Shown piece by piece: positions 8,001 through 27,529 of a stretch of DNA of 32,000 nt. The stretch is from Candidatus Saccharimonadota bacterium (GTDB lineage: Bacteria; Patescibacteriota; Saccharimonadia; Saccharimonadales; Saccharimonadaceae): positions 180,001-212,000 of the forward strand of contig CP060232.1 of NCBI GenBank assembly GCA_023898645.1, read 5' to 3'. A program made the translations under genes and the position numbers. Below the pieces are notes generated by a model that saw only the letters and a program-made list of their open reading frames with translations, was not told the DNA's origin and searched no databases. The stretch's first letter is position 1, and each line of letters begins with the position of its first letter.

Positions 8001-11000
8001 TTTCGCGAATGGCACCGACACGAATGTCGACATGTTGCTGACGACTAAGGGCTCGGGTGTTGTTAAGGCAAATGGTGTTGAAGTGGTGACTGTAGACGGC
8101 ACCCAAACTTTGACGAACAAAACAATCACATCACCTGTGATTAATAGTGCTACTGGTATCTCTGTTGGTGCGGTGGTATCTCCTACTGGTTCATCGAATC
8201 CTCCTAAAATTACCTTTAATCTGACATACGGCACGAATTCGCCGGGTAGTAATGCCAACCAAAAGATTCAACTCTACGCGGGCTATGGTTTTGGCTTGTC
8301 TGCTTCTATGCTTGAATACCAAGTAGTTACTGGCGCTGTCCATCGCTTCTTCGTAGGTGGCAGCGAACGAATGTCGATAAGTGGATCTGATGTGACAATC
8401 GGTGGAGTATCCGCTGCAACTACAACAGGTACGCAAACCCTCACCAATAAAACACTGACATCACCTAAGGTAAATTCAATCTATGATACCAATGGCGCAA
8501 ACGCGCTGTATATGACACCTACAGCGAATGCAGTTAATTATACCGAGTTGCGAAACGCTCCGGCGGGAAGCGCTAATCAGATTCGAAGTATTGGAGCAGA
8601 CACGAATATTAGCATGATGTTGGTGCCTAAGGGTAGCGGAAACGTTCAAATCTATTCCAATACCGGCATTACTCCGACTATTACTGCTGTTGGTGCAGAT
8701 GCCAATCACAATCTAAACCTCGTTCCTAAAGGCACTGGCACAGTACAGGCAAATGGTGTCGATATCGTTACTATATCTGGTACACAAACTCTCGCCAACA
8801 AAACTCTGACGAGTCCAAAAATAAATGCAATACTGGATACGAATGGCGCCACATCTCTTTCGGTTGGTGCCACAGCAAGTGCTGTAAACTATCTGACGAT
8901 TAATAATTCAGCCACGTCTTTGGCACCTAATCTTACCGCGACCGGATCTGACGCGAATATCAATCTAGACCTTAATCCAAAGGGCTCGGGCAAGGTACGA
9001 ATTATCGGTGTTCCAGTAGTAACCGAAACTGGCGGAGCGACCCTTACCAATAAAACTATCTCTGCGTCGAGCAATACTATATCTAATATTGCTGTATCAA
9101 ATCTCGACGCCAGTGCAGTTGTGACGGCAGCAGAAACTATAGCAGCCAACAACAACGACACGACTATTCCAACTTCGGCGGCAGTAAAGAGTTACGTAGA
9201 TAGCACGGGTAGTGGAGATGCATCGACCAATACTGCAACGTCGGTAGATAGCGAAGTGGCTGTATTTTCTGGTACGACAGGCAAGTTACTCAAGCGCGCC
9301 ACAGGCAGCGGTGTAGCCATACTAACATCGGGTGTCCTGAGCACAGTTACGGCACCGAGTGGCACGATTGTTGGTACCACCGACGCGCAGACACTTACCA
9401 ACAAAACGCTCACAAGTCCGACGATTAATGGAGCGACAATTACTGGTACGGTTCAGCTTCCTGAGCCGAATCAACTTACTGTTTCCTCGGCAAGTTTGAC
9501 TAACAAGAATTACGCTATATCCAATGACGTTTCGATTGGTGCATATCCTGCTTTCAATGCTTTTAGTAAGTACTTGTGGCACGATATTCTCCGATTTGGT
9601 AGGTGGATTGGAACGGGCACCTATGAAACATATGCAAGCGGTTCTTGGTCGAGTGCTACTAATCCGACAATCGTTTTCGCCGGCAAGGAGTCTGGTGCGT
9701 ATACACTCGCCGACGGAGCAACAACTACTGCCGTACGATGGACGTGGAATTCCGGCAATTTGTCATATAGTGGCCTATCTTGGATAATGATTGGCTTCGG
9801 CTATGGTAGTCCGGCTCCAAGTAATGAAGTTACAGTTGAATCAGGTACAGACGGTACCAACTGGACGACCCGACATACCTCTACTACAACTGCCAATGCG
9901 ACGTTCGCGGCCTTTCCGTTGACGGGTGTGGGTGGTGATACGTATTTACGCTTGACTATCACTACTACAAACAGTCGGCCTATTTACCTCAATTCGATAA
10001 AGGGACTAACTAACAGGCCCGCAAATCAAGGTGGTGGTGCGGATACTGAGTATCCTTATGACTGGGATGCCAATCGAAATATCACTCTGGGATCAGGGAT
10101 TACTGCGCGCTCCGACGGTATTCTTAATATTGGCTCTACGACTACGACTACAGCTGCGGGCGGTATTTATTTTGGCAACGACACGAACTTATATCGCAGC
10201 GCAGCGAACACCCTCAAGACAGACGACAATCTAGCCATCGGTACATCCACTCAGACCGCCACAGCTACCCCCGCCAACATCAACCTCGGTGGTACGTATG
10301 GCAACAATACCGTTGGTACTCAGGGTAATCTCAAGTTGCGACTATACGACAATGGTAGTGGCAGCAACCATTTTGGTTTGGGTATTTCGGATTCCAAGCT
10401 GGAATATCAGGTACCGAATGGGTCTGGCCATCATTTTTATGTCAATGGCGTCGAGCGGCTCAAGATTACCAACTCTTTGGTGCAGGTTGCCGGTGCTGAT
10501 GTAGTCACCACTACTGGCACGCAGACATTGACCAACAAAACTCTGACGAGTCCAAAAATAAATGCAATACTGGATACGAATGGCGCCACATCTCTTTCGG
10601 TTGGTGCCACAGCAAGTGCTGTAAACTATCTGACGATTAATAATTCAGCCACGTCTTTGGCACCTAATCTTACCGCGACCGGATCTGACGCGAATATCAA
10701 TCTAGACCTTAATCCAAAGGGCTCGGGCAAGGTACGAATTATCGGTGTTCCAGTAGTAACCGAAACTGGCGGAGCGACCCTTACCAATAAAACTATCTCT
10801 GCGTCGAGCAATACTATATCTAATATTGCTGTATCAAATCTCGACGCCAGTGCAGTTGTGACGGCAGCAGAAACTATAGCAGCCAACAACAACGACACGA
10901 CTATTCCAACTTCGGCGGCAGTAAAGAGTTACGTAGATAGCACGGGTAGTGGAGATGCATCGACCAATACTGCAACGTCGGTAGATAGCGAAGTGGCTGT

Positions 11001-13230
11001 ATTTTCTGGTACGACAGGCAAGTTACTCAAGCGCGCCACAGGCAGCGGTGTAGCCATACTAACATCGGGTGTCCTGAGCACAGTTACGGCACCGAGTGGC
11101 ACGATTGTTGGTACCACCGACGCGCAGACACTTACCAACAAAACGCTCACAAGTCCGACGATTAATGGAGCGACAATTACTGGTACGGTTCAGCTTCCTG
11201 AGCCGAATCAACTTACTGTTTCCTCGGCAAGTTTGACTAACAAGAATTACGCTATATCCAATGACGTTTCGATTGGTGCATATCCTGCTTTCAATGCTTT
11301 TAGTAAGTACTTGTGGCACGATATTCTCCGATTTGGTAGGTGGATTGGAACGGGCACCTATGAAACATATGCAAGCGGTTCTTGGTCGAGTGCTACTAAT
11401 CCGACAATCGTTTTCGCCGGCAAGGAGTCTGGTGCGTATACACTCGCCGACGGAGCAACAACTACTGCCGTACGATGGACGTGGAATTCCGGCAATTTGT
11501 CATATAGTGACCTATCTTGGATAATGATTGGCTTCGGCTATGGTAGTCCGGCTCCAAGTAATGAAGTTACAGTTGAATCAGGTACAGACGGTACCAACTG
11601 GACGACCCGACATACCTCTACTACAACTGCCAATGCGACGTTCGCGGCCTTTCCGTTGACGGGTGTGGGTGGTGATACGTATTTACGCTTGACTATCACT
11701 ACTACAAACAGTCGGCCTATTTACCTCAATTCGATAAAGGGACTAACTAACAGGCCCGCAAATCAAGGTGGTGGTGCGGATACTGAGTATCCTTATGACT
11801 GGGATGCCAATCGAAATATCACTCTGGGATCAGGGATTACTGCGCGCTCCGACGGTATTCTTAATATTGGCTCTACGACTACGACTACAGCTGCGGGCGG
11901 TATTTATTTTGGCAACGACACGAACTTATATCGCAGCGCAGCGAACACCCTCAAGACAGACGACAATCTAGCCATCGGTACATCCACTCAGACCGCCACA
12001 GCTACCCCCGCCAACATCAACCTCGGTGGTACGTATGGCAACAATACCGTTGGTACTCAGGGTAATCTCAAGTTGCGACTATACGACAATGGTAGTGGCA
12101 GCAACCATTTTGGTTTGGGTATTTCGGATTCCAAGCTGGAATATCAGGTACCGAATGGGTCTGGCCATCATTTTTATGTCAATGGCGTCGAGCGGCTCAA
12201 GATTACCAACTCTTTGGTGCAGGTTGCCGGTGCTGATGTAGTCACCACTACTGGCACGCAGACATTGACCAACAAAACTCTGACGAGTCCAAAAATAAAT
12301 GCAATACTGGATACGAATGGCGCCACATCTCTTTCGGTTGGTGCCACAGCAAGTGCTGTAAACTATCTGACGATTAATAATTCAGCCACGTCTTTGGCAC
12401 CTAATCTTACCGCGACCGGATCTGACGCGAATATCAATCTAGACCTTAATCCAAAGGGCTCGGGCAAGGTACGAATTATCGGTGTTCCAGTAGTAACCGA
12501 AACTGGCGGAGCGACCCTTACCAATAAAACTATCTCTGCGTCGAGCAATACTATATCTAATATTGCTGTATCAAATCTCGACGCCAGTGCAGTTGTGACG
12601 GCAGCAGAAACTATAGCAGCCAACAACAACGACACGACTATTCCAACTTCGGCGGCAGTAAAGAGTTACGTAGATAGCACGGGTAGTGGAGATGCATCGA
12701 CCAATACTGCAACGTCGGTAGATAGCGAAGTGGCTGTATTTTCTGGTACGACAGGCAAGTTACTCAAGCGCGCCACAGGCAGCGGTGTAGCCATACTAAC
12801 ATCGGGTGTCCTGAGCACAGTCACGGCTCCAAGCGGTACGATTGTTGGCACCACGGACGCGCAAACGCTTACAAACAAGACTTTAACAAGCCCGACAGTC
12901 AATGGCTATACCGAGGGTGTTGTGGCTATCGGAACCGTGACAACGAGCTACACGCTTGCTATCACAAGCGGCACAGTACTCACGGCTACATTGACTGCCT
13001 CGACCGCATGTACGTTTACTATGCCTACGGCTACGGCGGGCAAATCATTTACGTTGATGCTTAAGCAAGCGGCAAGCACGGGCAACGGCACCGCAACATT
13101 CACAGGTGTGAAATGGAATGCGGCTGGCGCCCCTACGATCACGGCAACTGCAGGGAAGATGGATATACTTAGCTTCTTCTCAGACGGAACAAATTGGTAC
13201 GGATCATATACACAGGGGTATACGCCGTAA
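5068..13230 (+). CDS. Giant (2720 aa) modular surface/adhesin-like protein with tail-fibre-like modules; no signal peptide
   Basis: A single uninterrupted ORF with a GTG start. It contains many ~75-95-aa modules delimited by G-T-Q-T-L-T-N-K-T-[LI]-T-S-P. A CBM-like jelly-roll lies at ~7096-7563 (ELWATNGFGSNWTGE...YYVDNLLWLNV). Discoidin-like segments are also present (...VESGTDGTNWTT...). Motifs common in phage tail-fibre-like proteins occur (APLKFTSGTLLT.PEAGAMEFAGDNYYLT; DTNLYRSAANTLKTDDNL; TTIPTSAAVKSYVDS). The N-terminus MVEQRLPAIDGDEGHWGEILNQFL is not hydrophobic. Confidence 0.9.
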   Translation: MVEQRLPAIDGDEGHWGEILNQFLSKEHHNTGLDDPTNGGHQKITIQPGTAAAGTAPLKFTSGTLLTAPEAGAMEFAGDNYYLTQTTGTTRKKIAAYDDTSGATGDIYYRNSSGYFTRLGVGSTGNVLTVAGGIPSWSSSISNTSTITLKDTNFTLQDDGNTTKQLKFELSGISASTTRTLTVPDANTTIVGTDVTQTLTNKTITSPTIDGTPISTFADTSGGSTVGRKYLLDIPIVPDQTSAGVSGGATIVGLQNDLAYLTARGGAITVTQNSVDISSSVLPENWFIPGNYVNLPVDATSDVYVITITRPTSNIYSNYWGWGQIGLNFRNGFHAKDVKLEVNSGGVWTTLLDVTNDSSSAKFARYQTLNPPYAEQFRITLTNLAYVNVTGLRIQNIWATSLSANPAVMSNLTYLPRGGGSIIGTSAAPPTFTAAGNDSNIGINLVPKGTGTVTVGGVDVVTTTGTQTLTNKTLTNPRINQINDTNGNTSIALIATASAVSYLHVTNAATGSFAVGGGVVLRPESTDTDVNLLAKPRGSGYVGISDSASGWIAKFARTAGANANYWNIQGSSAGGAVTLTAAGTDSSINANIVSKGTGTVQANGVDVVTTTGTQTLTNKTISGASNTLSNIPQSAITNLTTDITTAQTTADTAQKFIDLKASGLPNIASDPSCSVPELWATNGFGSNWTGEVSNEQAVSGTQSLKMTITGSSYPTLTFLRTKDGDYIPDIDSLRVRPGDKFYMEVYIRAHASNAVTNTLFYIQAWSTDSTGVNGYAFINSTGVAPSTSGWTKLTHTYTVPAGRDRLNIRLAGSLNNGIGDIYYVDNLLWLNVTDTQDIIDNVYQGINGGSSTWNSLATMKTAIQSLVTLTGTQTLTNKTLTSPKINQILDSNGVAVLGLTTTASAANYVNIRNKAAGSGPFVETAGSDTDIPLNLSTKGTGLIHLSPGGTAALQVGYTASSVNYFRLTGSATGSGPTLFANGTDTNVDMLLTTKGSGVVKANGVEVVTVDGTQTLTNKTITSPVINSATGISVGAVVSPTGSSNPPKITFNLTYGTNSPGSNANQKIQLYAGYGFGLSASMLEYQVVTGAVHRFFVGGSERMSISGSDVTIGGVSAATTTGTQTLTNKTLTSPKVNSIYDTNGANALYMTPTANAVNYTELRNAPAGSANQIRSIGADTNISMMLVPKGSGNVQIYSNTGITPTITAVGADANHNLNLVPKGTGTVQANGVDIVTISGTQTLANKTLTSPKINAILDTNGATSLSVGATASAVNYLTINNSATSLAPNLTATGSDANINLDLNPKGSGKVRIIGVPVVTETGGATLTNKTISASSNTISNIAVSNLDASAVVTAAETIAANNNDTTIPTSAAVKSYVDSTGSGDASTNTATSVDSEVAVFSGTTGKLLKRATGSGVAILTSGVLSTVTAPSGTIVGTTDAQTLTNKTLTSPTINGATITGTVQLPEPNQLTVSSASLTNKNYAISNDVSIGAYPAFNAFSKYLWHDILRFGRWIGTGTYETYASGSWSSATNPTIVFAGKESGAYTLADGATTTAVRWTWNSGNLSYSGLSWIMIGFGYGSPAPSNEVTVESGTDGTNWTTRHTSTTTANATFAAFPLTGVGGDTYLRLTITTTNSRPIYLNSIKGLTNRPANQGGGADTEYPYDWDANRNITLGSGITARSDGILNIGSTTTTTAAGGIYFGNDTNLYRSAANTLKTDDNLAIGTSTQTATATPANINLGGTYGNNTVGTQGNLKLRLYDNGSGSNHFGLGISDSKLEYQVPNGSGHHFYVNGVERLKITNSLVQVAGADVVTTTGTQTLTNKTLTSPKINAILDTNGATSLSVGATASAVNYLTINNSATSLAPNLTATGSDANINLDLNPKGSGKVRIIGVPVVTETGGATLTNKTISASSNTISNIAVSNLDASAVVTAAETIAANNNDTTIPTSAAVKSYVDSTGSGDASTNTATSVDSEVAVFSGTTGKLLKRATGSGVAILTSGVLSTVTAPSGTIVGTTDAQTLTNKTLTSPTINGATITGTVQLPEPNQLTVSSASLTNKNYAISNDVSIGAYPAFNAFSKYLWHDILRFGRWIGTGTYETYASGSWSSATNPTIVFAGKESGAYTLADGATTTAVRWTWNSGNLSYSDLSWIMIGFGYGSPAPSNEVTVESGTDGTNWTTRHTSTTTANATFAAFPLTGVGGDTYLRLTITTTNSRPIYLNSIKGLTNRPANQGGGADTEYPYDWDANRNITLGSGITARSDGILNIGSTTTTTAAGGIYFGNDTNLYRSAANTLKTDDNLAIGTSTQTATATPANINLGGTYGNNTVGTQGNLKLRLYDNGSGSNHFGLGISDSKLEYQVPNGSGHHFYVNGVERLKITNSLVQVAGADVVTTTGTQTLTNKTLTSPKINAILDTNGATSLSVGATASAVNYLTINNSATSLAPNLTATGSDANINLDLNPKGSGKVRIIGVPVVTETGGATLTNKTISASSNTISNIAVSNLDASAVVTAAETIAANNNDTTIPTSAAVKSYVDSTGSGDASTNTATSVDSEVAVFSGTTGKLLKRATGSGVAILTSGVLSTVTAPSGTIVGTTDAQTLTNKTLTSPTVNGYTEGVVAIGTVTTSYTLAITSGTVLTATLTASTACTFTMPTATAGKSFTLMLKQAASTGNGTATFTGVKWNAAGAPTITATAGKMDILSFFSDGTNWYGSYTQGYTP
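8795..12831 (+). repeat. 1737-bp (579-codon) in-frame tandem repeat, ~2.3 copies, essentially identical
   Basis: The copies span 8795-10531, 10532-12268 and 12269-12831 (partial). Antisense shadow ORFs recur at exactly +1737 (8889/10626/12363; 9192/10929; 9322/11059; 9524/11261). The one copy1/copy2 difference I located is G9773 vs A11510 (SYSGLSW vs SYSDLSW). Confidence 0.97.
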
Positions 13231-13877
13231 TGTTTGCTGCTACGAGTGCCTTTTTTACTGCATCTGCAGCCTTGGTGACAGGCTATCTGTCTACAGGAGC
13301 TGGAGATAGTTCTGCTACATCTAGGACAACCGCCACGTGGAATCATATTGTGGATGACACAACCAACGGTTACTTAGTTGTCTATGTAATGCACTATAAT
13401 AGCGCTTACACAATCTCCTCCGTTACTTGTAATGGTACGAATATGACTGCGATTAGTGCTCAAGTAAATTGGTCTGACGGAGGTAGTTATGGCTTGAGGG
13501 CATACGGTATTGCAAATCCTACGGTAGGAACAAATACAATTGTAGCTACACTTTCGTCAAGTACGTACATAACTGGTCAGTCGGTATTCTACTCTAATGT
13601 AGATGGTTCTAATGTATCTACGAGTACTACTTTCTCGAATGCTTCTATTCCTTGGTCTGACTCTGTAACTGTACCGGCGAGTGGTATGGTTTCTCATGCC
13701 TTCGGTTCGCTTGGCGCACCAGCGGACACTCCAACTGGCGGAACGATTCGATATAATTACGGTACGCATTATAACTGGCTTACTATACAAGATACGGACA
13801 CATCAGATACCTTTGCTACAGTAAGTGGCAATGGCCGCGGCTGGGGGGCTATTAGTGTATCTCTTCCCCGTGCCTGA
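13230..13877 (+). CDS. Hypothetical protein (215 aa from ATG 13230), paralogue of the next gene
   Basis: The ORF track opens at 13194, but the ATG at 13230 overlaps the giant gene's stop as TAATG. The protein shares the pattern T.TW.H....G..V...........V..V.Y.G.......L......Y.........YG......G...... with the following ORF. Confidence 0.7.
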   Translation: MFAATSAFFTASAALVTGYLSTGAGDSSATSRTTATWNHIVDDTTNGYLVVYVMHYNSAYTISSVTCNGTNMTAISAQVNWSDGGSYGLRAYGIANPTVGTNTIVATLSSSTYITGQSVFYSNVDGSNVSTSTTFSNASIPWSDSVTVPASGMVSHAFGSLGAPADTPTGGTIRYNYGTHYNWLTIQDTDTSDTFATVSGNGRGWGAISVSLPRA

Positions 13878-14520
13878 TTCTGGGTATAGTCCTCCGCCAC
13901 CTCCTACGTTAGACTTTCTTGCCGCTGGCGATACTGCAGATAATAACTCATTAAAGACTCTCACCTGGTCGCACACTACCACTGCTGGTGCATGGGTGTT
14001 TTTATGGTTGGCACATTTCGCCCAGACTGGTGGTCCGAATACTGTTACTTATGACGGGAATGATATTACTGGAAACTTATTAGCATCTACAGCTTATACC
14101 GATAGTACCTATCTTAAGTTATATGGTTTTCAGGATGTCACAGGTGGTACAAAAACTTTTGCGATAACTCAAGGTGGCGGTAACACAATGAGGTATGCCG
14201 TAGCTAATTCTGTATCTTATACGGGCATAGCATCGGTGGGTACGCCAGCAACTGCTACTGGTACGCTCACGGAAACGATTAATTGTGTCTCGAATCAATA
14301 TATCTTGCAGTCTTTTGCACGATACTCAGGTACTGCTACAGGTACTATGAATGCTGCTTTCAGCGGCGGTGCGGCTGGAATAAACATTTTTGACAATGTA
14401 GTGCGCGCGACAGGAGGTCGAGGTGGTATATTGATTAACTTTGCCGATGCTAGTACTACATTTTCACTTTCCGATAGTCTCGTAGCGCATAGTATAGGGG
14501 TTGTACTAACGAGAACGTAG
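13825..14520 (+). CDS. Hypothetical protein (231 aa), paralogue of 13230-13877; start uncertain
   Basis: The ORF overlaps the previous gene by 53 nt in the +1 frame. The alternative start is GTG at 13870. It contains a PPPPP stretch and the paralogous core LTWSHTTTAGAWVFLWLAHF...VTYDGNDIT...LKLYGFQDVTGGTKTF. Confidence 0.65.
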   Translation: MAMAAAGGLLVYLFPVPDSGYSPPPPPTLDFLAAGDTADNNSLKTLTWSHTTTAGAWVFLWLAHFAQTGGPNTVTYDGNDITGNLLASTAYTDSTYLKLYGFQDVTGGTKTFAITQGGGNTMRYAVANSVSYTGIASVGTPATATGTLTETINCVSNQYILQSFARYSGTATGTMNAAFSGGAAGINIFDNVVRATGGRGGILINFADASTTFSLSDSLVAHSIGVVLTRT

Positions 14521-14521
14521 T

Positions 14522-14539
14522 TAAGGATTTTTATCCTTA
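14522..14539 (+). terminator. Weak hairpin after the giant-gene operon (TAAGGAT-TTTT-ATCCTTA)
   Basis: A perfect 7-bp stem (14522-14528 / 14533-14539) with a TTTT loop lies 2 nt after the stop at 14520. It is AT-rich and has no downstream U-tract, so this is a low-confidence terminator. Confidence 0.3.
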
Positions 14540-14622
14540 TGAAGTAACTGCTGTCTCTGGAACGATATATCTTGGTACAGATAGAGCCCTCAATATGTTT
14601 GGATTACATACCTGCTGGCCGC

Positions 14623-14631
14623 TGGTATACT
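14623..14631 (+). promoter_or_regulatory. Candidate extended -10 element (TGgTATACT) upstream of cassette A
   Basis: It has the same TGgTATA[AC]T form as the lepA element. A weak -35-like ATTACA lies at 14603-14608 with a 17-nt spacer. The element is ~120 nt upstream of the first cassette gene. Confidence 0.3.
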
Positions 14632-14753
14632 TACATTTATATGGTGAATGAACGAATCAATAAATAAATCTCATATTATGATAGTGCATAAAGCTATAGT
14701 GGGGTAAGCTTGTATGTGTGGCGGACCAATATGATGCTGATATGTGCGAAATT

Positions 14754-15653
14754 ATGAAGAGAACAAAGCTCATGGCTGCTACATTGGTGACAATTCTATG
14801 TTTTTTACTTGCTCCTGCCCAGACGGTATGCGCCATAAGAGATATAAAGGGTCTAGCGCTCGCTCCCTTACGAACAGAATTGTCAGTTTCGCCGAGTGAG
14901 ACAATCAGTCGCAAACTCCAACTTACAAATTATTCAGATACGCAAATGACCGTGCGCTTGGACGCCGAAGAGTTTGGGGTGGTGAATCAGCAATACGATT
15001 ATTCGTTTGACGCGCAGTCTGATGTGTCGAAGTGGGTGTCGTTTGATTCTCCTGAGGTAGATATTGATCCTGGTAAGACTCATGTGGTGTCGTATGTTGT
15101 AGACGTGCCGCAAAATGCCGAACCGGGCGGGCGATATATAAGTCTCTTTGCATCGAGCGATGTACAAACTGCACCGGGCGAAATCCACACCGAGCAACGA
15201 ATCGCGTCGCTGCTATATTTGACCGTAAGGGGCGACGTAACGCGAATTGGCAGCCTGAAATCACTCAAAAGCCCGGTCGTGTTTGACGGTTATGAACCAT
15301 GGAAGTTGGTTGTCGCGAATACCGGCACGGCGCATTTTCGTAGTAAATACACAGTCAGTGTGAGGAGCATATTTGATAATAGCGAGGTTGCCTCGCGGAG
15401 TGGTGATTCGCTCGTACTGCCGCACACCACGCGAGCTATCTCGGCGCAGATGCCAGTATTGAAATATGTAGGCGTGTATCGAGCCGTATATACCGTTGGG
15501 CTGGGCGATGCGCCTGCGGCTAAGAGGGAATTTATAATCTACTTTTTGCCCAAGCAATCGTATGTGCCGCTTGCTTCGCTAACTGTCATAGTCATTGCGG
15601 GAATATCGTATGTAGTCTGGAAACTGCGACAACGAACGAAAAAGACTGCCTAA
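14754..15653 (+). CDS. Cassette A, type-1 anchor protein: signal peptide, beta-rich ectodomain, C-terminal TM helix plus basic tail (DUF916/DUF3324-like layout)
   Basis: The ORF track opens at GTG 14718. The ATG at 14754 gives a textbook signal peptide (MKRTKLMAATLVTILCFLLAPAQTVCA). The motif NAEPGGRYISLFASS is present. The C-terminus is PLASLTVIVIAGISYVVWKLRQRTKKTA. Paralogue of 26037-26936. Confidence 0.8.
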   Translation: MKRTKLMAATLVTILCFLLAPAQTVCAIRDIKGLALAPLRTELSVSPSETISRKLQLTNYSDTQMTVRLDAEEFGVVNQQYDYSFDAQSDVSKWVSFDSPEVDIDPGKTHVVSYVVDVPQNAEPGGRYISLFASSDVQTAPGEIHTEQRIASLLYLTVRGDVTRIGSLKSLKSPVVFDGYEPWKLVVANTGTAHFRSKYTVSVRSIFDNSEVASRSGDSLVLPHTTRAISAQMPVLKYVGVYRAVYTVGLGDAPAAKREFIIYFLPKQSYVPLASLTVIVIAGISYVVWKLRQRTKKTA

Positions 15654-16189
15654 TCAATATCTGGCACGGCAGTGTATACGATCGATGTGGTGTAATTGCC
15701 CGCTGGTTTTGCAAGGTCGACCTTGACACCGTAAGTGATAGTAGTGATATCGCCATACATTGCTGGGCCAGTGAGCGAGCGGATGAGTGTGTCGGTGAGC
15801 GAAGAGCCAACGAAATTGTTGGAACCATCGGTGTTGTACCCCCATGTATTTATTGCCAAAGGGGCAGGAGAGACATTGCCGGAAGTTGGTAAAACATCGC
15901 CAAGGTTGTCCATGTCGGTACTTGGTTCGGAACGCAGATAGAGTTTGTGACCAACTACGTCGGTAGAAGTAACGGTGACAGTGCTCGTGCCAGTCACTTG
16001 TGAACCCGATGAGGTGGGTGTGACGGCAAGCGAAACGTCGCCGTCGGTGCTAATGGCGATGTAGGTGGCGGACCCATACGGCACGTTTTCGTTGTATTTG
16101 CCTTGGTTGTATGAAGACGCATGCACTAGAGGTACGAATACAAATACCGCAACAACGCTCACTCCGATAAAGGCTATGGTTTTCTTCAT
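15650..16189 (-). CDS. Cassette A, small secreted protein (179 aa), WxL-like C-terminal strand pattern
   Basis: The signal peptide is MKKTIAFIGVSVVAVFVFVPLVHA. The mature part contains ...TVTVTSTDVVGHKLYL...NTWGYNTDGSNNFVG...AGNYTTSIVYTAVPDID. Paralogue of 26939-27496. Its stop overlaps the convergent upstream gene's stop by 4 nt. Confidence 0.85.
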   Translation of the reverse strand: MKKTIAFIGVSVVAVFVFVPLVHASSYNQGKYNENVPYGSATYIAISTDGDVSLAVTPTSSGSQVTGTSTVTVTSTDVVGHKLYLRSEPSTDMDNLGDVLPTSGNVSPAPLAINTWGYNTDGSNNFVGSSLTDTLIRSLTGPAMYGDITTITYGVKVDLAKPAGNYTTSIVYTAVPDID

Positions 16190-16234
16190 GCTTGTGGTAT
16201 CATTGTATCATCTGATAAACCGTAGTAATACCAA

Positions 16235-17308
16235 ATGAAATATAGCAAGGGTAAACATTCGCGTAGGCAGACCATCCGAGGGTTGGTTTTTGCGTTTGTA
16301 CTTACGGTTACCCCCTTCTTGCAAGCGCCGTTTGCAAATGCCGGTACTATTACGAATCGTAAAATCACGCTTTCTACCTCTGTAGGGGATGCTTCTGGGG
16401 TTACGTATACATTAACGAGCGACGCCCTTCCGACTACTGGTACAGCTATCAAGTCTGTCGGTGTGCAGTTTTGTACGTCACTAGAGGGCGCTTGTTCTAC
16501 GCCTGCTGGTTTTTCTGCTTCTGCATCGACACTCGCTGTACAGCCTAGTGGTGTCGGCGCCGGGTCTGGATGGACAGTCAATACTGCCTCGGCCGGCTCT
16601 CTTCGTATTGTTAATGCAGCCAACGCTACCAATCCATCTGGCTCAGTCAGTATACAGTGGGGTGGAGTGCACAACCCTACCGCAACCAATACGACGTTTT
16701 ATGCCAAAATCACTACGTACTCTGATGCTGCGTGGACAACAGCAGTAGACTCATCGGACACTGCACTTAGTACCTCTGCTCAAATTCAAGTCGTGCTAGA
16801 TGTCAACGAGGCTCTTACATTTTGTACCGGCACTAGTATCACAGGCCAAAACTGCGCTACTGTCGCAGGGTCTACTGTGGATCTCGGTACTGCATCGACT
16901 ACTGCTACCGCAACAGGTACCTCGGTATTTGCGGCATCGACAAATGGCGAGCATGGGTATACTGTCACGGTAACCGGCCCGACACTAACTTCAGGAAGTA
17001 ACACTATTACGGCTATGGCTGCGAACGCTGCATCTTCGGTTGGTACAAGTCAGTTCGGTATCAATCTTGTGAGCAATGCTACTCCGTCTGTAGGATCTAA
17101 CGTCAGTGGCACAGGTACGGCCGCGGCTACTGCAAATTATAATACGGCTAACTCATTTCGATTTGCTTCAGGAGATGCGGTGGCTAGTGTAAGTGTTCCT
17201 ACCAACGCCAACGCGTTTACAGTCAGCTATATTGCGAACATTGCGGGTGTAACTCCTCCGGGCATTTACACGACAAATCTGCATTATGACGCCACTGCGA
17301 ATTACTAG
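16235..17308 (+). CDS. Cassette A, 357-aa secreted Thr/Ser/Ala-rich protein (putative fibre/surface subunit)
   Basis: The signal is MKYSKGKHSRRQTIRGLVFAFVLTVTPFLQAPFANA. The protein is T/S/A/G-rich and ends ...VTPPGIYTTNLHYDATANY. Paralogue of 28580-29653, which is also 357 aa in the ORF track. Confidence 0.85.
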   Translation: MKYSKGKHSRRQTIRGLVFAFVLTVTPFLQAPFANAGTITNRKITLSTSVGDASGVTYTLTSDALPTTGTAIKSVGVQFCTSLEGACSTPAGFSASASTLAVQPSGVGAGSGWTVNTASAGSLRIVNAANATNPSGSVSIQWGGVHNPTATNTTFYAKITTYSDAAWTTAVDSSDTALSTSAQIQVVLDVNEALTFCTGTSITGQNCATVAGSTVDLGTASTTATATGTSVFAASTNGEHGYTVTVTGPTLTSGSNTITAMAANAASSVGTSQFGINLVSNATPSVGSNVSGTGTAAATANYNTANSFRFASGDAVASVSVPTNANAFTVSYIANIAGVTPPGIYTTNLHYDATANY

Positions 17309-17395
17309 CTGCGCATAGGTAGTGTCCGATAATAACATGCATTCTGTTTTGATATTTTGGAATATCTCATAATCTGATTAGAGAGTGTAAAATAG

Positions 17396-18400
17396 GTGAG
17401 AATGAAGAGAATATTTAATCGAGCAACGATTTTGATTATCGCTATGCTTGTTTCCGTGTCGTTGCTCCCAGCGGATTTGTATGCGCAATCGGCAGGAGCT
17501 GCACAAGGTGTCCAACTAAGTCCATCGATAATCGAGTTGAATGCTGAGCGCGGGGGTATTTACACCCTTACTGTAGAGGTGACAAATGTTACGGCTGGGG
17601 ATTTAGACTACGCAGTTTCAGTAAATGATTTTACTTCTAAGGATGAAACAGGCTCGCCAAAGGTGTTACGTAATTCTCAACTGCCTAAGCAGATTTCAAT
17701 TCGTACATGGACCACGCCATCCGTATCTTCTTTTCACCTTAATACACGCAAAAGTAGTACGGTTGAGTTTAAGGTAATCGTACCAGCAGATGCCGAACCG
17801 GGTGGCCACTACGGTGTACTGGATTTTTCCGGATCTAATACAAACATAAAGCAAACAGGTGTTGGGCTGACGGCAAGCGCAGGCACGCTGCTGCTTGTGA
17901 AGGTCGACGGCGCTATCAAGGAGAATGCTTCGATTGCTTCGTTTTACACTGTGAATAATGGCAAAGAGTCGAACTTTTTTGAAAATAGTCCGGTGAGTTT
18001 TATTACCCGGGTTCAAAATACCGGCAACATTCATATCAAGCCGTTTGGCGCCATTGAGCTAAAAAATATGTTTGGATCGATTGTGGCTACACTGCCGGTA
18101 AACAAAGTGCAGTCTAATGTTTTGCCTAAGAGTATTCGGCGTTTTGACAGTACCTATGGTGAGTATATGATCGGTTTTTATACTGCAACGGTAACACTCG
18201 GCTATGGATCGCAGGGGCAAGCGATTATTGCAAGTACGTCGTTTTGGGTCATACCATACAAATTGATAGCGACCATTCTACTCGTGATCGCGCTGGTTAT
18301 CTTTATTCTCAGAAGGATACAGATAGCGTACAATAGGAGAGTAATCAAAAAATACAAAAACGCACAACAAAAAGATGATTCGAAAGAAAGCAAAAACTAA
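17396..18400 (+). CDS. Cassette A, type-2 anchor protein: signal peptide, ectodomain, C-terminal TM helix plus basic tail
   Basis: The start is GTG 17396 or ATG 17402. The signal is MKRIFNRATILIIAMLVSVSLLPADLYA. Internal motifs are ADAEPGGHYGVLDF and NTGNIHIKPFGAIELKNMFG. The C-terminus is FWVIPYKLIATILLVIALVIFILRRIQIAYNRRVIKKYK. Paralogue of 29672-30769. Confidence 0.85.
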   Translation: MRMKRIFNRATILIIAMLVSVSLLPADLYAQSAGAAQGVQLSPSIIELNAERGGIYTLTVEVTNVTAGDLDYAVSVNDFTSKDETGSPKVLRNSQLPKQISIRTWTTPSVSSFHLNTRKSSTVEFKVIVPADAEPGGHYGVLDFSGSNTNIKQTGVGLTASAGTLLLVKVDGAIKENASIASFYTVNNGKESNFFENSPVSFITRVQNTGNIHIKPFGAIELKNMFGSIVATLPVNKVQSNVLPKSIRRFDSTYGEYMIGFYTATVTLGYGSQGQAIIASTSFWVIPYKLIATILLVIALVIFILRRIQIAYNRRVIKKYKNAQQKDDSKESKN

Positions 18401-19517
18401 AACTACTCGGTATAAAGTCAAAAAGGTTGCGCATCCGATAGCTACCAAGTTAAAGCTTTTGCAACATGCCCATACCGGGCGTATTGTTCATCGTCACCAT
18501 ACGTCGTATCCAGTTCTATTAATACTTCTTGTTATTACGGGATTTTTTGTGTTCGTTGGGTATGATATTTCGGCGGCCGATACAAATGTGACCGTCGGTC
18601 TTACCGTGCCTGCGGAGCCACCTACCGAAGGTGCGGTAATCACATCGCCCAAAAATGGTACCGTTTCTAAAAAGGCAATAATCGATGTTAAAGGAACATG
18701 TTCTATTACGTCTGAAGTCGTTGTGTATAGTAATAACACGCTTGTTGGTTCGACATTATGCACGACAGAATCGACATTTCAGCTGAAAATTCAGCTATTT
18801 GGTGGCATTAATAAACTGACAGCATTGAACTATAATGGCATGAACCAAGCTGGGCCGATTACGCCTAGCGTGAAAGTGATATACGTGGCACCTCCAAATA
18901 CAGGAGCCACAGAGGTACCGGTGTACCCAATCGTGGTTCCGGGCGTAACGCCAACGTCGCCTGAATCTTGTACGCAAAAAGCAACGTCTGATGCGTGTAA
19001 CAAAACATATGTGGTGTCGTGCAACGACTACAGCTCAAACAAGGGCATTCCGGTATCAAAAGAAGTTCGCGCAGCAATCATTTGCCTGCAACGTCATGTG
19101 AGTACCGCAGGAGAAACGATAATCGGCATATTGGTGTGGGGCGGCAGCCCGCCATATGCCGTCACGATTAACTGGGGCGATGGTTCTGCGGACTTGGTAA
19201 AGAGTATAAGTAAGCCGGGGTATTTTACGGTCTCAAAAAAGTACACTGAAAAAGGCCAATACACCATTGAGGTGCAGTCTTTTGATAGTAATGGTAAGCA
19301 GGCATTTATGCAGGCGACAATTGATGTTTCCGGACCAGAAAAGCCAAAAGATTTTATTGGCTATGTAGGTAATAGCATGAATCTATCTTGGTTTGATTCG
19401 CCCGTTCCAACGTATTTTCTTGCTGTCGCAATCGTGATTGGATTTTGGGCTGGTGATTATTTTGAGCGGGCGATTCTTGCAACTCGCAAGGTACGCGGAC
19501 GTCGTCGGCATGCGTAG
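18375..19517 (+). CDS. Cassette A, doubly anchored protein: His-rich N-terminal motif, TM, Ig-like and PKD-like domains, C-terminal TM plus Arg tail
   Basis: The N-terminus is ...KLKLLQHAHTGRIVHRHHTSYPVLLILLVITGFFVF. The PKD-like signature is VTINWGDGSA...KKYTEKGQYTIEVQSFDSNGKQA. The C-terminus is PTYFLAVAIVIGFWAG...RKVRGRRRHA. It overlaps the previous gene by 26 nt. Paralogue of 27530-28516. Confidence 0.85.
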   Translation: MIRKKAKTKTTRYKVKKVAHPIATKLKLLQHAHTGRIVHRHHTSYPVLLILLVITGFFVFVGYDISAADTNVTVGLTVPAEPPTEGAVITSPKNGTVSKKAIIDVKGTCSITSEVVVYSNNTLVGSTLCTTESTFQLKIQLFGGINKLTALNYNGMNQAGPITPSVKVIYVAPPNTGATEVPVYPIVVPGVTPTSPESCTQKATSDACNKTYVVSCNDYSSNKGIPVSKEVRAAIICLQRHVSTAGETIIGILVWGGSPPYAVTINWGDGSADLVKSISKPGYFTVSKKYTEKGQYTIEVQSFDSNGKQAFMQATIDVSGPEKPKDFIGYVGNSMNLSWFDSPVPTYFLAVAIVIGFWAGDYFERAILATRKVRGRRRHA

Positions 19518-19602
19518 CGAAATATACGTTTTGCTGCAAATATGAAGTAATACGAATAACGGAGTATACTAACACATAACGGGTGGCAGAAAGAGGAGCA
19601 AT

Positions 19603-20790
19603 ATGACTGAAAAATGGTCCGCGAATAACTATCATGAATTAAATGATATTGCGCTTGAATATGGAGAACGCACATGGGTGCGAGATGTCGAAGGTACGTG
19701 GTATCTCGATTGCTTGGCTGGTTATTCTGCCAATAACTTTGGTCATCGAAATCCCGCTCTTGTTGAAGCCGCTAAAAACCAGCTCAATAAGTTGACACTG
19801 ACTGCGCGCGCATATAAGCAAGATCAGTTGGAGCCGTTTTGTCGGGAGCTTGGTGAACTAACTAGCAAAGAGGCGGTATTGCCAATGAATACCGGTGCCG
19901 AGGCAGTTGAGACTGCTATCAAACTTTCACGTAAGTGGGGGTATGAAGTAAAAGGAATTCCAAAAAACAAGGCGAATATCATCGTCATGCATGATAATTT
20001 TCATGGTCGCACAACTTCGATTGTTGGATTTTCTGACGATAACTCTGCAAGGGGCGGGTTTGGTCCATTTGCTCCCGGTTTTCGGCGTGTCGCGTATGGA
20101 GATTCTCGGGCTATTGAAAACGCTATAGATGAAAATACAGCTGCTATTTTGTTTGAACCTATTCAAGGAGAAGCGGGGGTTATTATCCCGCCAAATGGTT
20201 ATTTACGAGAAATTCGTGACATATGTAATCGTGAAAACGTGTTGATGATGGCAGACGAAATTCAGTCTGGTTTTGGCCGTACAGGCGAGGATTTTGTATG
20301 CGAACATGAGGGCGTGGAACCGGATGTATATATATTGGGAAAGGCGCTCGGAGGAGGTATTGTACCTGTTTCGGCAGTATGCGCGAATCGCGATATCATG
20401 GATGTGATCAAGGCGGGTGAGCATGGCAGTACATTTGGCGGCAATCCTTTGGCTTGTGCTGTTGGTCGAGCAGCGATAGGGCTTCTTAATACTGGCCGAT
20501 ATCAAAAAAATGCTCGTGATCGTGGACGAGAAATGCAAGCAGGACTCGAAGAATTAATAGGTCATGGCGTGACCGAAGTACGCAGCAGGGGTTTGTGGTT
20601 TGGTGTCGACATTGACCCTGCGCTAATGACTGGTCGCAGGGCTTGCGAGCGATTATTGCAACGCAATGTTCTTGCCAAGGATACGCATGGATCCACGATT
20701 CGTTTTTCGCCACCACTCAATATCTTTCCGGAAGAGGTTGACTTTGCGGTACGGCAGCTGCGCGACACGTTGTACGCCGCAAGGAGGTAA
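19603..20790 (+). CDS. rocD: Ornithine aminotransferase (ornithine--oxo-acid transaminase), class-III PLP enzyme
   Basis: It aligns by eye along its whole length with RocD/OAT: LPMNTGAEAVETAIK, FHGRT, EPIQGEAGVIIPP, ADEIQSGFGRTG, ILGKALGGG (PLP lysine), HGSTFGGNPLACAV and IRFSPPL. SD AGAGGAG lies upstream of the ATG. Confidence 0.92.
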   Translation: MTEKWSANNYHELNDIALEYGERTWVRDVEGTWYLDCLAGYSANNFGHRNPALVEAAKNQLNKLTLTARAYKQDQLEPFCRELGELTSKEAVLPMNTGAEAVETAIKLSRKWGYEVKGIPKNKANIIVMHDNFHGRTTSIVGFSDDNSARGGFGPFAPGFRRVAYGDSRAIENAIDENTAAILFEPIQGEAGVIIPPNGYLREIRDICNRENVLMMADEIQSGFGRTGEDFVCEHEGVEPDVYILGKALGGGIVPVSAVCANRDIMDVIKAGEHGSTFGGNPLACAVGRAAIGLLNTGRYQKNARDRGREMQAGLEELIGHGVTEVRSRGLWFGVDIDPALMTGRRACERLLQRNVLAKDTHGSTIRFSPPLNIFPEEVDFAVRQLRDTLYAARR

Positions 20791-26036: not shown

Positions 26037-26936
26037 ATGCAATGTTTGGAGACAATGTTTAAAATGACGATACAAAAAATAGCGGTTGCACTTATCTTTT
26101 CTGTTGCGTCGACGCTTGCGTCGGTGCCATCAGTCGCCACCGCTGCAGGTGTGGGATACGGACTCTCGGTTTCGCCGCCGCGACAAACACTTGATTTGGC
26201 TGCAGGGTCGACGAAAACGGCGTTTTTTACCGTTAAAAACGCTACCGACAAGTCAATGGTAGTAGATTTGAGCGTAAAAGAATTTTCGGTGAGTGATAAA
26301 ACGTACGACTACGTTTTTAGCAAACCCGAACACGAATGGGTAAAGACGCGGCTCGAGCAACTAACATTGCAACCAAATCATGCCGCGAAAATCATCTATG
26401 ACGTAACAGTCCCTGAAAGAGCAAAACCGGGCGGGTACTATTTTGCACTTTTTGCGAGCACAAAAGTCAATGGCGCCGCCTTGCCCGGTACGGAACAAGT
26501 AGCAACGTTGCTCTATGTTACTGTCGACGGCAAGCTTGTGCGCACGAGTGTATTGCAAAATGATTCCGTGCCGTGGTTTGTTATGGGAGACGAAATTCCG
26601 TATAAATTTAGCGTGAAAGACACGGGCAACGTGTATTTCACGGCGTATTTTTACGGAAAGGTGAACGGACTTTTTGTCGACCAGCCTGCCTCTGGCACGA
26701 GCCATATAGTAATGCCCGGCGCAACGCGAACGATATCTGGTTCGGTACCCACGCCCTTTTTGCCGGGAGTCTATACGATGACCTATGGATACAAAGTAGA
26801 CTTCGCAAACATTGAAATCGTTAAAACGACCTTGGTAATATTTATTCCTCCGTGGTCAATTGCCGCGTCTGTGTTCGTGCTGCTTCTTGCCTTGTGGTTG
26901 AGGCAAAGGCGATATATAAAGAAAGAGCAATCTTAG
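26037..26936 (+). CDS. Cassette B, type-1 anchor protein (paralogue of 14754-15653)
   Basis: Possible starts are 26037, 26055 and 26064. The signal is ...MTIQKIAVALIFSVASTLASVPSVATA. Internal motifs are KEFSVSDKTYDYVF, RAKPGGYYFALFAST and LLYVTVDGK. The C-terminus is WSIAASVFVLLLALWLRQRRYIKKEQS. Confidence 0.85.
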   Translation: MQCLETMFKMTIQKIAVALIFSVASTLASVPSVATAAGVGYGLSVSPPRQTLDLAAGSTKTAFFTVKNATDKSMVVDLSVKEFSVSDKTYDYVFSKPEHEWVKTRLEQLTLQPNHAAKIIYDVTVPERAKPGGYYFALFASTKVNGAALPGTEQVATLLYVTVDGKLVRTSVLQNDSVPWFVMGDEIPYKFSVKDTGNVYFTAYFYGKVNGLFVDQPASGTSHIVMPGATRTISGSVPTPFLPGVYTMTYGYKVDFANIEIVKTTLVIFIPPWSIAASVFVLLLALWLRQRRYIKKEQS

Positions 26937-26938
26937 AA

Positions 26939-27496: not shown

Positions 27497-27529
27497 TACT
27501 AGTAACTATACTATATCTGTACTATACTT

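Follow-up and report, generated by a model that had tools for sequence, protein, structure and literature searches.

What do five adjacent genes build on the surface of a Saccharimonadia bacterium when all of them encode exported or membrane-anchored proteins? The genes (P1 to P5, here cassette A) lie in a 32,000-nucleotide stretch of contig CP060232.1, the whole of which is called the window. We conclude that cassette A is very probably an operon for a pam-type pilus in this Saccharimonadia (CPR) cell. Directly shown are the families to which P3 and P5 belong, the fold and topology found for P4, a pilin-like fold for P2, the paralogy of P1 and P4, and conserved synteny. The five open reading frames of the first-pass annotation are present where it had placed them (Table 1), as are all the peptides that it cited (NAEPGGRYISLFASS, AGNYTTSIVYTAVPDID, PPGIYTTNLHYDATANY and ADAEPGGHYGVLDF). 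Its description of five adjacent proteins that begin with a signal or anchor and lack an NTPase motif was confirmed, as Kyte-Doolittle scans found an N-terminal hydrophobic segment in 5/5 products and a motif scan found no Walker A or NTPase motif in P1-P5. The motif scan also bore out the remark that W-x-L motifs and an LPXTG partner are missing, since none of the five has a dual W-x-L motif or a C-terminal LPXTG signal, and LPxTG-like strings occur only internally (LPTTG in P3, LPTSG in P2). Hydropathy placed a C-terminal transmembrane (TM) segment at residues 283-301 of P1 and 290-308 of P4, with a basic tail after it in both. P5 has an N-terminal TM segment (47-65) and, towards its C-terminus, a less marked hydrophobic stretch with RKVRGRRRHA after it; beside P1 and P4, it is probably the third member whose C-terminal TM helix carries a basic tail. 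Translation of P1 probably begins at an internal ATG (MKRTKL...) at about 14754, and the stop of P4 is overlapped by the start of P5 by 26 nt. A curated Pfam assignment above threshold was absent for 4/5 proteins; Pfam gave no SLH or S-layer domain in P1-P5 and no sequence-level match of cassette A proteins to PapD or fimbrial families, and the called genes downstream of the cassette include no sortase.

Table 1. Genes of cassette A, the related cassette B and the large upstream gene (window positions)
Feature	Position	Strand	Length	Assignment or evidence
Giant protein	5068-13230	+	2720 aa	Thr/Ser/Gly-rich repeat protein upstream of cassette A
P1	14718-15653	+	311 aa	membrane-anchored chaperone-like, PamC/PamD-like, WxLIP homologue
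P2	15650-16189	-	179 aa	small secreted single-domain pilin-like subunit
P3	16235-17308	+	357 aa	major Pam pilin, PamB-like size
P4	17396-18400	+	334 aa	second membrane-anchored chaperone-like, PamC/PamD-like, WxLIP homologue
P5	18375-19517	+	380 aa	PamR-like (RbmA-like), hydrophobic anchors at N-terminus and C-terminus
Cassette B	26037-30769	mixed		related second set, ~6.5 kb from cassette A
B, P1-like chaperone	26037-26936	+		
B, P2-like small subunit	26939-27496	-		
B, PamR-like	27530-28516	+		PamR model, E 1.6e-31
B, Pam pilin	28580-29653	+		against alignment A7, hhalign 99.2%, E 8.7e-20
B, P4-like chaperone	29672-30769	+		

The Pam pilus is a surface fibre that ultra-small CPR bacteria build without a motor. 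It was first reported in a 2026 preprint, for which peer review is pending and which gives filament structures of PamA and PamB by cryo-EM (bioRxiv 10.64898/2026.03.03.709456). According to the same preprint, it comprises two-domain pilins linked by donor-strand exchange, the TM-anchored PapD-like chaperones PamC and PamD, and an RbmA-like anchor, PamR; a tail-fibre-like neighbour is conserved, ATP synthase genes are typically found nearby, and the homologues of Ca. Mycosynbacter amalyticus form filaments implicated in host contact. Using the Pam models of NCBIfam release 20 (NF058578, NF058579 and NF058581), we found that P3 matches NF058581 CPR_Pam_pilin_C over residues 210-357 with 167.4 bits (cutoff 55; E 2e-49), and by this sequence match it is a member of the Pam pilin family. 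Every one of its 905 homologues is from CPR or metagenomic sources. A signal peptide and an N-terminal domain are followed in P3 by a strand at about residues 183-197 (QIQVVLDVNEALTFC) and by the C-terminal Pam pilin domain; conservation is highest in this linker strand and the C-terminal domain, a pattern also described for PamA and PamB (bioRxiv 10.64898/2026.03.03.709456), and residues I184, V186, L188, V190, E192, F196 and C197 are invariant in alignment A1. The conserved strand is our candidate for the donor or linker strand.

P1 and P4 are paralogues (BLASTP E 6e-10 over 281 aa; P4-family HMM against P1, E 8.5e-20). Each has a signal peptide, two beta-sandwich domains, Ig-like in P4 (about 39-170 and 178-285), a C-terminal TM helix, which begins at 288 in P4, and a basic tail, and the AF2 model of P4 (pLDDT 86.6) contains both sandwiches and the helix. 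In Foldseek, the best PDB folds for this model were the E. faecium WxL-interacting proteins (WxLIPs) 9i1y and 9i25 (E 1e-11), and the next matches were mostly chaperones, namely CfaA, CsuC, Caf1M, CupB2, DraB and FimC (E 1e-8 to 1e-7). The analogy with Csc/WxL loci drawn in the first-pass annotation, in which DUF916/DUF3324-type anchors accompany WxL-domain proteins, was half right. The anchors fit, since hhalign as well as Foldseek relates P1/P4 to WxLIPs: alignment A4, to which P1 belongs, matched Firmicutes WxLIPs at 98.9% (E 2e-17), and Pfam WxLIP_PGBD matched 35/41 P4 relatives, 105/136 family representatives, and P1 itself at E 0.015 (model positions 21-111 of 121). We conclude that P1 and P4 are genuine homologues of WxLIPs (DUF916/DUF3324, CscA-type) over both domains. 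The secreted proteins, on the other hand, have no detectable WxL homology: Pfam gave zero WxL-domain matches in P2, P3 and 166 aligned family members, hhalign of their families against WxL domains was insignificant, and the solved WxL chain 9i25_A was missed by the Pam pilin profiles but found at E 1.8e-8 by a WxL control profile. The likeness suggested for the last strand is seen as a pattern, G-x-Y-T-T-x-L/I-x-Y in P2/P3 beside Y-T-T-T-L-T-W-x-L in WxL proteins, but without detectable homology of the domain; at the two W-x-L positions that a comparison by eye suggests, the Pam proteins have Tyr or His for Trp. Because PamC and PamD have no curated model, P1 and P4 were assigned as PamC/PamD-like by fold, topology and context, and we regard them as putative chaperones of that kind.

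P2, for which there are about 793 database homologues, gave an AF2 model (pLDDT 81) that resembles chaperone-usher pilins instead of a WxL-type fold, with CsuA/B, CfaE, CS20, FocH and PapE as best PDB matches; FimH pilin domains matched too. Weak matches to CPR_Pam_pilin_C were present in 29/41 P2 family members (best E 2e-4), and in 34/34 loci having P1, P2, pilin and P4 the gene is antisense and lies between the P1 and pilin genes. P2 is probably a minor subunit, most likely a tip or adaptor. As a PamT equivalog it was rejected, no cassette A protein having reached the PamT cutoff in NCBIfam. True PamT equivalogs (283-303 bits; cutoff 240) do occur in sister loci whose chaperone and PamR-like genes are the same. 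P5, which the first-pass annotation had set apart as an extra PKD protein, proved to be a PamR-like member of the system, matching NF058578 CPR_pilus_PamR at E 1.3e-49 with 168.7 bits, under the equivalog cutoff of 300, and giving weak Pfam matches to Glucodextran_B and PKD_4. At locus L026, the PamR-like protein beside a bona fide PamT is also under this cutoff (199.8 bits).

The same families recur together across dozens of other species, as a neighbourhood survey of 79 species loci, all retrieved from MAGs and 56 of them with enough flank, revealed. The pilin adjoins a P4-like gene in 73/79 loci; among the 56 sufficiently flanked ones, pilin, P4-like and PamR-like genes are kept in 53, the PamR-like gene follows the P4-like gene in 53, and all five families are kept in 32. 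Because families, order and orientation are the same in dozens of species, the grouping is far beyond chance. Relatives of the giant protein stand upstream of P1 in 25/56 loci; it has no match in Pfam or NCBIfam and is likely the 'tail fibre-like protein' neighbour of the Pam preprint, an associated gene rather than a proven part. Cassette B matched by HMM and phmmer at E 5e-18 to 9e-58.

We infer from the homologues that the chaperones donate a strand, that the subunits polymerise and in what order they do so, and that the fibre binds a host; the filament, the subunit order and the host-binding role have been shown, or just modelled, in M. amalyticus. Sec would export all five products, and P1 and P4 would be held in the cytoplasmic membrane via their C-terminal helix, with two Ig-like domains facing outside. 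By analogy with PapD/FimC, PamC/PamD and the WxLIP-WxL pair, they would lend a beta-strand completing the otherwise incomplete Ig-like C-terminal domain of freshly exported subunits. P3 would polymerise head-to-tail by donor-strand exchange, its interdomain strand filling the groove of the neighbour subunit; P2 would add a single-domain minor subunit, and P5, our proposed fibre terminator and membrane tether, would stop growth and hold the fibre to the membrane. An usher, an ATPase and a sortase would all be unnecessary, and the fibre would most likely extend toward the host bacterium carrying the epibiont. An ATPase-less, Sec-dependent, self-assembling surface fibre module of a CPR-like cell is what the first-pass annotation had envisaged, and the Pam homologues support this; its possible host-attachment role is consistent with the host-contact filaments implicated in M. 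amalyticus. The proposed mechanism, chaperone-assisted donor-strand exchange, went unnamed in it.

A static surface complex of the WxL/Csc type, in which P1/P4 hold P2 and P3 on the envelope as an adhesive platform without polymerisation, would accord with the true WxLIP homology of the anchors, with a layout of small secreted, larger secreted and TM-anchored two-domain proteins that fits the WxL cluster definition (PMC10599100), and with the last strand of P2/P3. We consider it unlikely, however, since members of the P3 family have been seen as cryo-EM filaments, P2 has the fold of donor-strand pilins, neither protein has detectable WxL homology though the control profile works, and both an LPXTG partner and, among the called downstream genes, a sortase are absent. 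That secreted adhesins or envelope proteins with no relation to each other simply lie together, forming no single machine, could be argued from the 4/5 proteins lacking a curated Pfam assignment and from P2 being on the opposite strand, but order and orientation are conserved across dozens of species, several components match models of one described system, and P4 and P5 overlap; this very improbable reading is effectively refuted already by the synteny. We give hardly any credence to a sortase-assembled Gram-positive-type pilus, an S-layer or another characterised envelope system: the LPTTG and LPTSG strings and the Thr/Ser/Ala-rich proteins that might suggest one are set against the missing C-terminal sorting signal, the lack of a sortase among the called downstream genes, the lack of SLH or S-layer domains in Pfam, and best folds that are those of WxLIPs, chaperone-usher chaperones and chaperone-usher pilins.

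The pam-type pilus that we favour is already covered by the 2026 preprint and the NCBIfam models, and hence is not an undescribed system. Judged by these models and the preprint's description, cassette A, with its predicted fibre, shares with the Pam of M. amalyticus the Pam pilin C-terminal domain (P3), the PamR-like anchor (P5), a pair of chaperone-like, TM-anchored proteins that each have two Ig-like domains (P1, P4), Sec signals throughout, the absence of usher, ATPase and sortase, an adjoining giant tail-fibre-like gene and a Saccharimonadia-type CPR host. It differs in having one two-domain pilin only and no large pilin of PamA size, in lacking a PamT equivalog and carrying the antisense 179-aa P2 instead (the M. 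amalyticus pilins are PamA/B/E/T), and in a P5 under the PamR equivalog cutoff; moreover, the window divides the genes over two cassettes, and no ATP synthase neighbours were found among the genes checked in it. With chaperone-usher pili (Pap/Fim, Csu, CFA/I, Caf1), cassette A shares the fold of P4 (CfaA, CsuC, Caf1M, FimC chaperones), that of P2 (CsuA/B, CfaE, PapE, FimH pilin domains) and, by analogy, a presumed ATP-free assembly via donor-strand complementation and exchange. In contrast to those systems, it has neither an outer-membrane usher nor an outer membrane, its chaperones are membrane-anchored rather than soluble, and its major pilin has two domains, with an internal linker as the putative donor strand in place of an N-terminal extension.

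In the WxL/Csc systems of Lactobacillales and Listeria (PMC10599100, PMC9772566), a WxLIP made of DUF916, DUF3324 and a TM helix accompanies small and large WxL proteins. P1 and P4 share both WxLIP domains and the C-terminal TM helix, both kinds of cluster combine an anchor protein with a small and a larger secreted partner, and for WxL/Csc as for Pam the prediction is that a strand from the anchor protein completes the partner's incomplete beta-sandwich. Cassette A differs in having no WxL domain in P2/P3 by Pfam, hhalign and PDB sequence search, no LPXTG partner or sortase, and in belonging to another phylum; published accounts treat WxL proteins as platforms bound to peptidoglycan rather than as filaments. 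The Pam preprint (bioRxiv 10.64898/2026.03.03.709456) makes no mention of WxL or DUF916, and in the literature we found no paper connecting WxL clusters with donor-strand assembly. The sole new point is this kinship: the membrane-anchored chaperones of this pilus and the WxL-interacting proteins known from Gram-positive gut bacteria are truly related.

Hydropathy scanning of the five proteins of cassette A, P1 to P5, revealed an N-terminal hydrophobic segment in all of them (5/5), and in P1 and P4 also a C-terminal transmembrane (TM) segment followed by a basic tail. In P5 the TM segment lies at the N-terminus, and a weaker C-terminal hydrophobic stretch precedes RKVRGRRRHA. In a motif search, P1-P5 proved to lack Walker A, dual W-x-L and C-terminal LPXTG motifs, and coordinates, hydropathy and motifs all agree with the first-pass annotation, which had described co-located exported or anchored proteins without an NTPase motif and without these two signatures. 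The Pfam scan of P1-P5 yielded sub-threshold matches only, to WxLIP_PGBD (DUF916) and fn3_5 in P1 and P4 and to Glucodextran_B and PKD_4 in P5, with none to PapD, usher, fimbrial, WxL or SLH models. The DUF3324 model was absent among the Pfam matches listed for P1/P4.

Coordinates of cassette A, cassette B and the giant upstream ORF in the window
Feature	Position	Strand	Length	Remark
Giant ORF	5068-13230		2720 aa	Thr/Ser/Gly-rich; upstream of cassette A
P1	14718-15653	+	311 aa	
P2	15650-16189	-	179 aa	
P3	16235-17308	+	357 aa	
P4	17396-18400	+	334 aa	
P5	18375-19517	+	380 aa	
Cassette B P1-like chaperone	26037-26936	+		
Cassette B P2-like small subunit	26939-27496	-		
Cassette B PamR-like protein	27530-28516	+		NCBIfam E 1.6e-31
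Cassette B Pam pilin	28580-29653	+		hhalign 99.2% vs pilin family
Cassette B P4-like chaperone	29672-30769	+		

The decisive matches for identifying cassette A came from NCBIfam release 20, which holds models of the usher-less Pam pilus of CPR bacteria (cutoffs of 55 bits for CPR_Pam_pilin_C, 300 for the PamR equivalog and 240 for the PamT equivalog). The preprint describing Pam reports the cryo-EM of two filaments of Ca. Mycosynbacter amalyticus, built of the two-domain pilins PamA and PamB joined by donor-strand exchange, and an operon that adds the pilins PamE and PamT, the TM-anchored PapD/FimC-like chaperones PamC and PamD and the RbmA-like anchor PamR, frequently next to a tail-fibre-like gene and ATP synthase genes; it regards the Pam components as exclusive to CPR (bioRxiv 10.64898/2026.03.03.709456). 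P3 scored 167.4 bits against CPR_Pam_pilin_C (NF058581), with residues 210-357 spanning the full model (1-148). Cassette A is a fresh instance of a kind of system described in 2026 and not a new one, and the novelty claimed for it at first is not upheld.

P3, in which Thr, Ser, Ala and Gly make up 53% of the residues, is identical to GenBank USN96743.1 (locus tag H6797_00895, annotated as 'hypothetical protein') and belongs to a family with 905 matches, whose typical Saccharimonadia orthologues are 60-67% identical to it. Conservation peaks in the C-terminal domain and is also high in a strand-like segment at about residues 183-197, where I184, V186, L188, V190, E192, F196 and C197 are invariant. 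[quoted passage not shown] A sequence search of the PDB with P3 and three pilin-family profiles (A1, A3 and A7) retrieved nothing relevant, the copy searched apparently being without the PamA/PamB structures. Internal LPxTG-like strings occur in P3 (LPTTG, residues 65-69, of which L65 and P66 are conserved across orthologues) and in P2 (LPTSG, residues 100-104); they are unlikely to be sorting signals, since no hydrophobic segment and basic tail follow them and there is no sortase among the neighbouring called genes.

P5 matched the PamR model (NF058578 CPR_pilus_PamR) with E 1.3e-49 and 168.7 bits, which indicates clear homology to PamR at a score below the equivalog cutoff. This shortfall would say little against orthology, because the PamR-like neighbour of a bona fide PamT likewise scores only 199.8 bits. 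As for PamT itself (NF058579), no protein of cassette A reaches the cutoff: the 114.8 bits of P3 come from its C domain alone, and no match was obtained for P2. P2 represents a separate family of about 180 aa with 793 matches, and it matches the Pam pilin C domain weakly (E 0.005 in NCBIfam), as do 29 of 41 family members. In hhalign, the P2 and P3 families aligned over the last 54 columns only, at 21% probability, so that any relationship between P2 and the pilin C domain would have to be very remote. The closest Foldseek matches of the P2 model (pLDDT 81) were CsuA/B, the CfaE pilin domain, CS20, FocH and PapE, with probabilities of 0.96-1.00 and E values of 3e-3 to 3e-2. P2 is not a PamT equivalog but a member of another small, pilin-like family.

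BLASTP (E 6e-10 over 281 residues) and HMM comparison (E 8.5e-20) identify P1 and P4 as paralogues, and both have the signal peptide, two Ig-like domains and C-terminal TM helix of a Pam chaperone; PamC and PamD lack a curated orthology model. The AlphaFold2 model of P4, made with 41 homologues (mean pLDDT 86.6), consists of beta-sandwiches at about 39-170 and 178-285 and a long helix from 288, a predicted fold that fits the PapD/FimC-like PamC/PamD with their C-terminal TM helix. The top PDB matches of this model in Foldseek were WxLIPs, the proteins of DUF916, DUF3324 and a TM helix found in Firmicutes WxL/Csc clusters: the WxLIP of Enterococcus faecium (9i1y, E 1.3e-11) and WxLIP bound to a long WxL protein (9i25_C, E 8.5e-11). 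These were followed mostly by the chaperone-usher chaperones CfaA, CsuC, Caf1M, CupB2, DraB and FimC (E 1e-8 to 1e-7), in whose range RbmA and other PapD-like domains (CEP192) also score. At the sequence level, P1 (15.8 bits) and P4 (17.5 bits) stay under the gathering score of Pfam WxLIP_PGBD (27.3), which nevertheless matches 35 of 41 close P4 homologues and 105 of the 136 sequences in an alignment that comprises P1, P4 and 134 representatives (50% identity), with a best E of 4e-11. The best PDB sequence matches of the P4-family profile are to EfmWxLIP1 (E 0.0055). Moreover, hhalign of the P4/P1 family against seven Firmicutes WxLIPs, annotated 'DUF916 and DUF3324 domain-containing' on plasmids of Enterococcus, Lactococcus, Listeria and Lactiplantibacillus, gave 98.9% and E 2.1e-17 over 235 columns across both domains. 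The relation between P1/P4 and WxLIP is therefore one of true homology, which goes further than the analogy to DUF916/DUF3324 anchors drawn in the first-pass annotation.

The same annotation had likened the secreted proteins P2 and P3 to WxL-domain proteins, and this part was not upheld. The Pfam WxL model had no match (0) in P2, P3 or 166 aligned family members (35 + 41 + 90). When the pilin and P2 families were aligned by hhalign with 13 WxL domains from annotated Firmicutes plasmids, taken from the clusters that supplied the WxLIPs, only the final strand was covered, with E 0.018-0.08 and a probability below 3%. Profiles of the Pam pilins did not find the WxL chain 9i25_A at E up to 10, whereas a WxL control profile recovered it with E 1.8e-8, and 9i25_A was not among the best 50 fold matches listed for P2, whose predicted structure is chaperone-usher pilin-like. 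There is no W-x-L in P2, and P3 has W-T-V only. What the two groups share is a motif-level likeness of the last strand, (A/P)-G-x-Y-T-T-x-L-x-Y in Pam and A-x-x-Y-T-T-T-L-T-W-x-L in WxL, and a correspondence of the internal Pam G-Y-x-[IV]-x-V with the WxL G-W-x-L-x-V; the cassette B pilin has G-W-M-V at this internal position. One relative 67% identical to P3 (UniRef100_A0A4Q0AGY3) is named 'WxL domain-containing protein' in UniRef, a label that is irreproducible with the current Pfam WxL model, which matches neither this protein nor the other family members scanned. Given the null Pfam result and the insignificant hhalign scores, we rejected WxL homology of P2 and P3 as unsupported, despite the UniRef name.

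To survey related loci we took one genome per GTDB species and mapped ORFs by HMM and phmmer, which resulted in 79 loci, all from MAGs and none labelled M. amalyticus. A P4-like gene adjoins a pilin in 73 of the 79. In 53 of the 56 loci whose flanks were long enough, a pilin gene is accompanied by P4-like and P5-like genes, and 32 of the 56 have all five families in the window's order (P1+, P2-, one to five tandem pilins, P4, P5), showing that the five families occur together beyond this genome. In the other common layout, P1 and P2 are replaced at the start by a pilin of 245-262 aa, which is a bona fide PamT (283-303 bits vs the cutoff of 240). The P2 gene stands antisense amid a co-directional row, with a 4-nt convergent overlap with the P1 stop and, divergently, 45 nt from the P3 start; every one of the 34 loci with P1, P2, pilin and P4 shares this placement. 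P4 and P5 overlap by 26 nt (18375-18400), and such overlaps of chaperone and PamR-like genes, present in many related loci (e.g. L005, L006 and L017), suggest translational coupling. A promoter and terminator scan of 13000-20000 returned fewer sites than shuffled sequence. Tandem PamB-like pilin copies separating P2 from the P4-like gene number one in the window, two or three in loci L003-L016 and five in L011 and L017; this variable number suggests rapid paralogue expansion, possibly as antigenic or host-range variation. Two loci encode giant proteins that end in the Pam pilin C-terminal domain (L076, 4149-8435, 1428 aa; L077, 5532-8378, 948 aa), possible adhesin-tipped subunits reminiscent of 'large WxL' proteins, in which the assembly domain is likewise C-terminal.

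The window itself carries cassette B in addition, amounting in total to four chaperone-like proteins, two two-domain pilins, two small subunits and two PamR-like proteins. The giant ORF, with relatives in 25 of the 56 loci with enough flank, contains a tandem repeat at 8781-12857 whose period is 1737 nt (579 aa), the copies 8781-11120 and 10518-12857 differing at 15 of 2340 positions. Tandem Repeats Finder reported none in this ORF, the period exceeding 500 nt, and Pfam and NCBIfam gave no match to it; it probably represents the 'tail fibre-like' gene that neighbours pam operons. The window genes checked include no ATP synthase genes. Between the giant ORF and P1 lie two overlapping ORFs of uncertain coding status (13194-14520; 227 and 231 aa), which have no family match and no relatives in the 79 loci. 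The 1.13-Mb contig that carries the window is labelled Candidatus Nomurabacteria; its close relatives are all Saccharibacteria/Saccharimonadales MAGs, and the organism is thus a Saccharimonadia-type CPR bacterium. Operon contigs also occur in MAGs labelled Bathyarchaeia archaeon, Magnetospirillaceae, Candidatus Acidoferrum and Candidatus Methylomirabilis (P0010/P0137/P0251; L036; L054 and L064; L076), and these non-CPR labels most likely reflect binning contamination.

CPR bacteria, which may account for much of bacterial diversity, spend their lives attached to host cells, and how they reach and hold their hosts is a central open question. For cassette A, the best-supported account is the Pam model, transferred by analogy. 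All parts are exported by Sec; P1 and P4, tethered to the membrane as chaperones, would cover the subunits' open C-terminal domain; P3 would polymerise via its linker strand, with P2 as a minor subunit, tip or adaptor; and P5 would terminate the fibre and tether it to the membrane, leaving the fibre to touch the host bacterium. The main rival, in which the same proteins form a static WxL-like surface platform, is disfavoured, since members of the P3 family have been seen as filaments. Chance clustering of the genes, sortase pili and S-layers are excluded by the synteny, the motifs and the fold matches. The original idea of a motor-less, Sec-dependent, self-assembling host-attachment fibre in a CPR cell is essentially right. 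In Saccharimonadia genomes this machinery is conserved, duplicated and variable in layout, with and without PamT.

The homology of PamC/PamD with WxLIP is the sole point here that goes beyond the literature found. WxL, DUF916 and DUF3324 go unmentioned in the Pam preprint (bioRxiv 10.64898/2026.03.03.709456), and within the library searched we found no paper behind PDB 9i1y/9i25 and no link of WxL to donor-strand assembly. Strand completion of the WxL partner, as predicted for WxLIP, is donor-strand complementation in all but name. This homology opens the possibility of a common origin for Pam and WxL/Csc, and suggests a shared assembly principle for systems studied by two separate research communities. 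We tentatively propose, at somewhat less than even confidence, that the Pam pili of CPR and the Firmicutes WxL/Csc clusters represent two branches of a single ancient system, usher-less and belonging to single-membrane bacteria. In it, incomplete beta-sandwich subunits would be completed and passed on by a membrane-anchored protein with two Ig domains (WxLIP = PamC/PamD). Of this proposal, the chaperone half is strongly supported; the half relating pilins to WxL domains draws on the shared last-strand pattern only and is not statistically supported. If the proposal is true, Pam components are not CPR-exclusive, contrary to the preprint, WxL proteins of Enterococcus, Listeria and Lactobacillus may assemble, perhaps polymerise, by donor-strand complementation, and the 'peptidoglycan-binding' and 'host-membrane-inserting' proposals for WxLIP would need revision. 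In practical terms, 9i25, as WxLIP with a WxL protein, provides a solved template for modelling Pam chaperone-subunit complexes, and thousands of 'hypothetical' CPR proteins can be better annotated, the P4-family profile alone matching 9212 clusters (50% identity) with E no higher than 1e-3 in a set of 1.84 billion representatives.

Compared with known systems, sortase pili consist of pilins with a C-terminal LPXTG and a pilus-specific sortase; cassette A has no such signal, and the neighbouring called genes include no sortase. Chaperone-usher systems employ an outer-membrane usher and a soluble, periplasmic PapD-family chaperone, whereas cassette A has no usher-sized beta-barrel gene and its chaperones are TM-anchored; the similarity is at the fold level only. 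In WxL/Csc clusters, two or more WxL-domain proteins are encoded no further than four genes from the WxLIP, whereas cassette A showed none, and the examples from E. innesii and L. plantarum include a small LPXTG-anchored partner (CscD type) and/or a sortase, from which cassette A also differs (compare loci L081 and L088). What cassette A has in common with WxL/Csc is the WxLIP itself, defined by DUF916/PGBD, DUF3324/HBD and a TM helix, an architecture found in the P1/P4 family.
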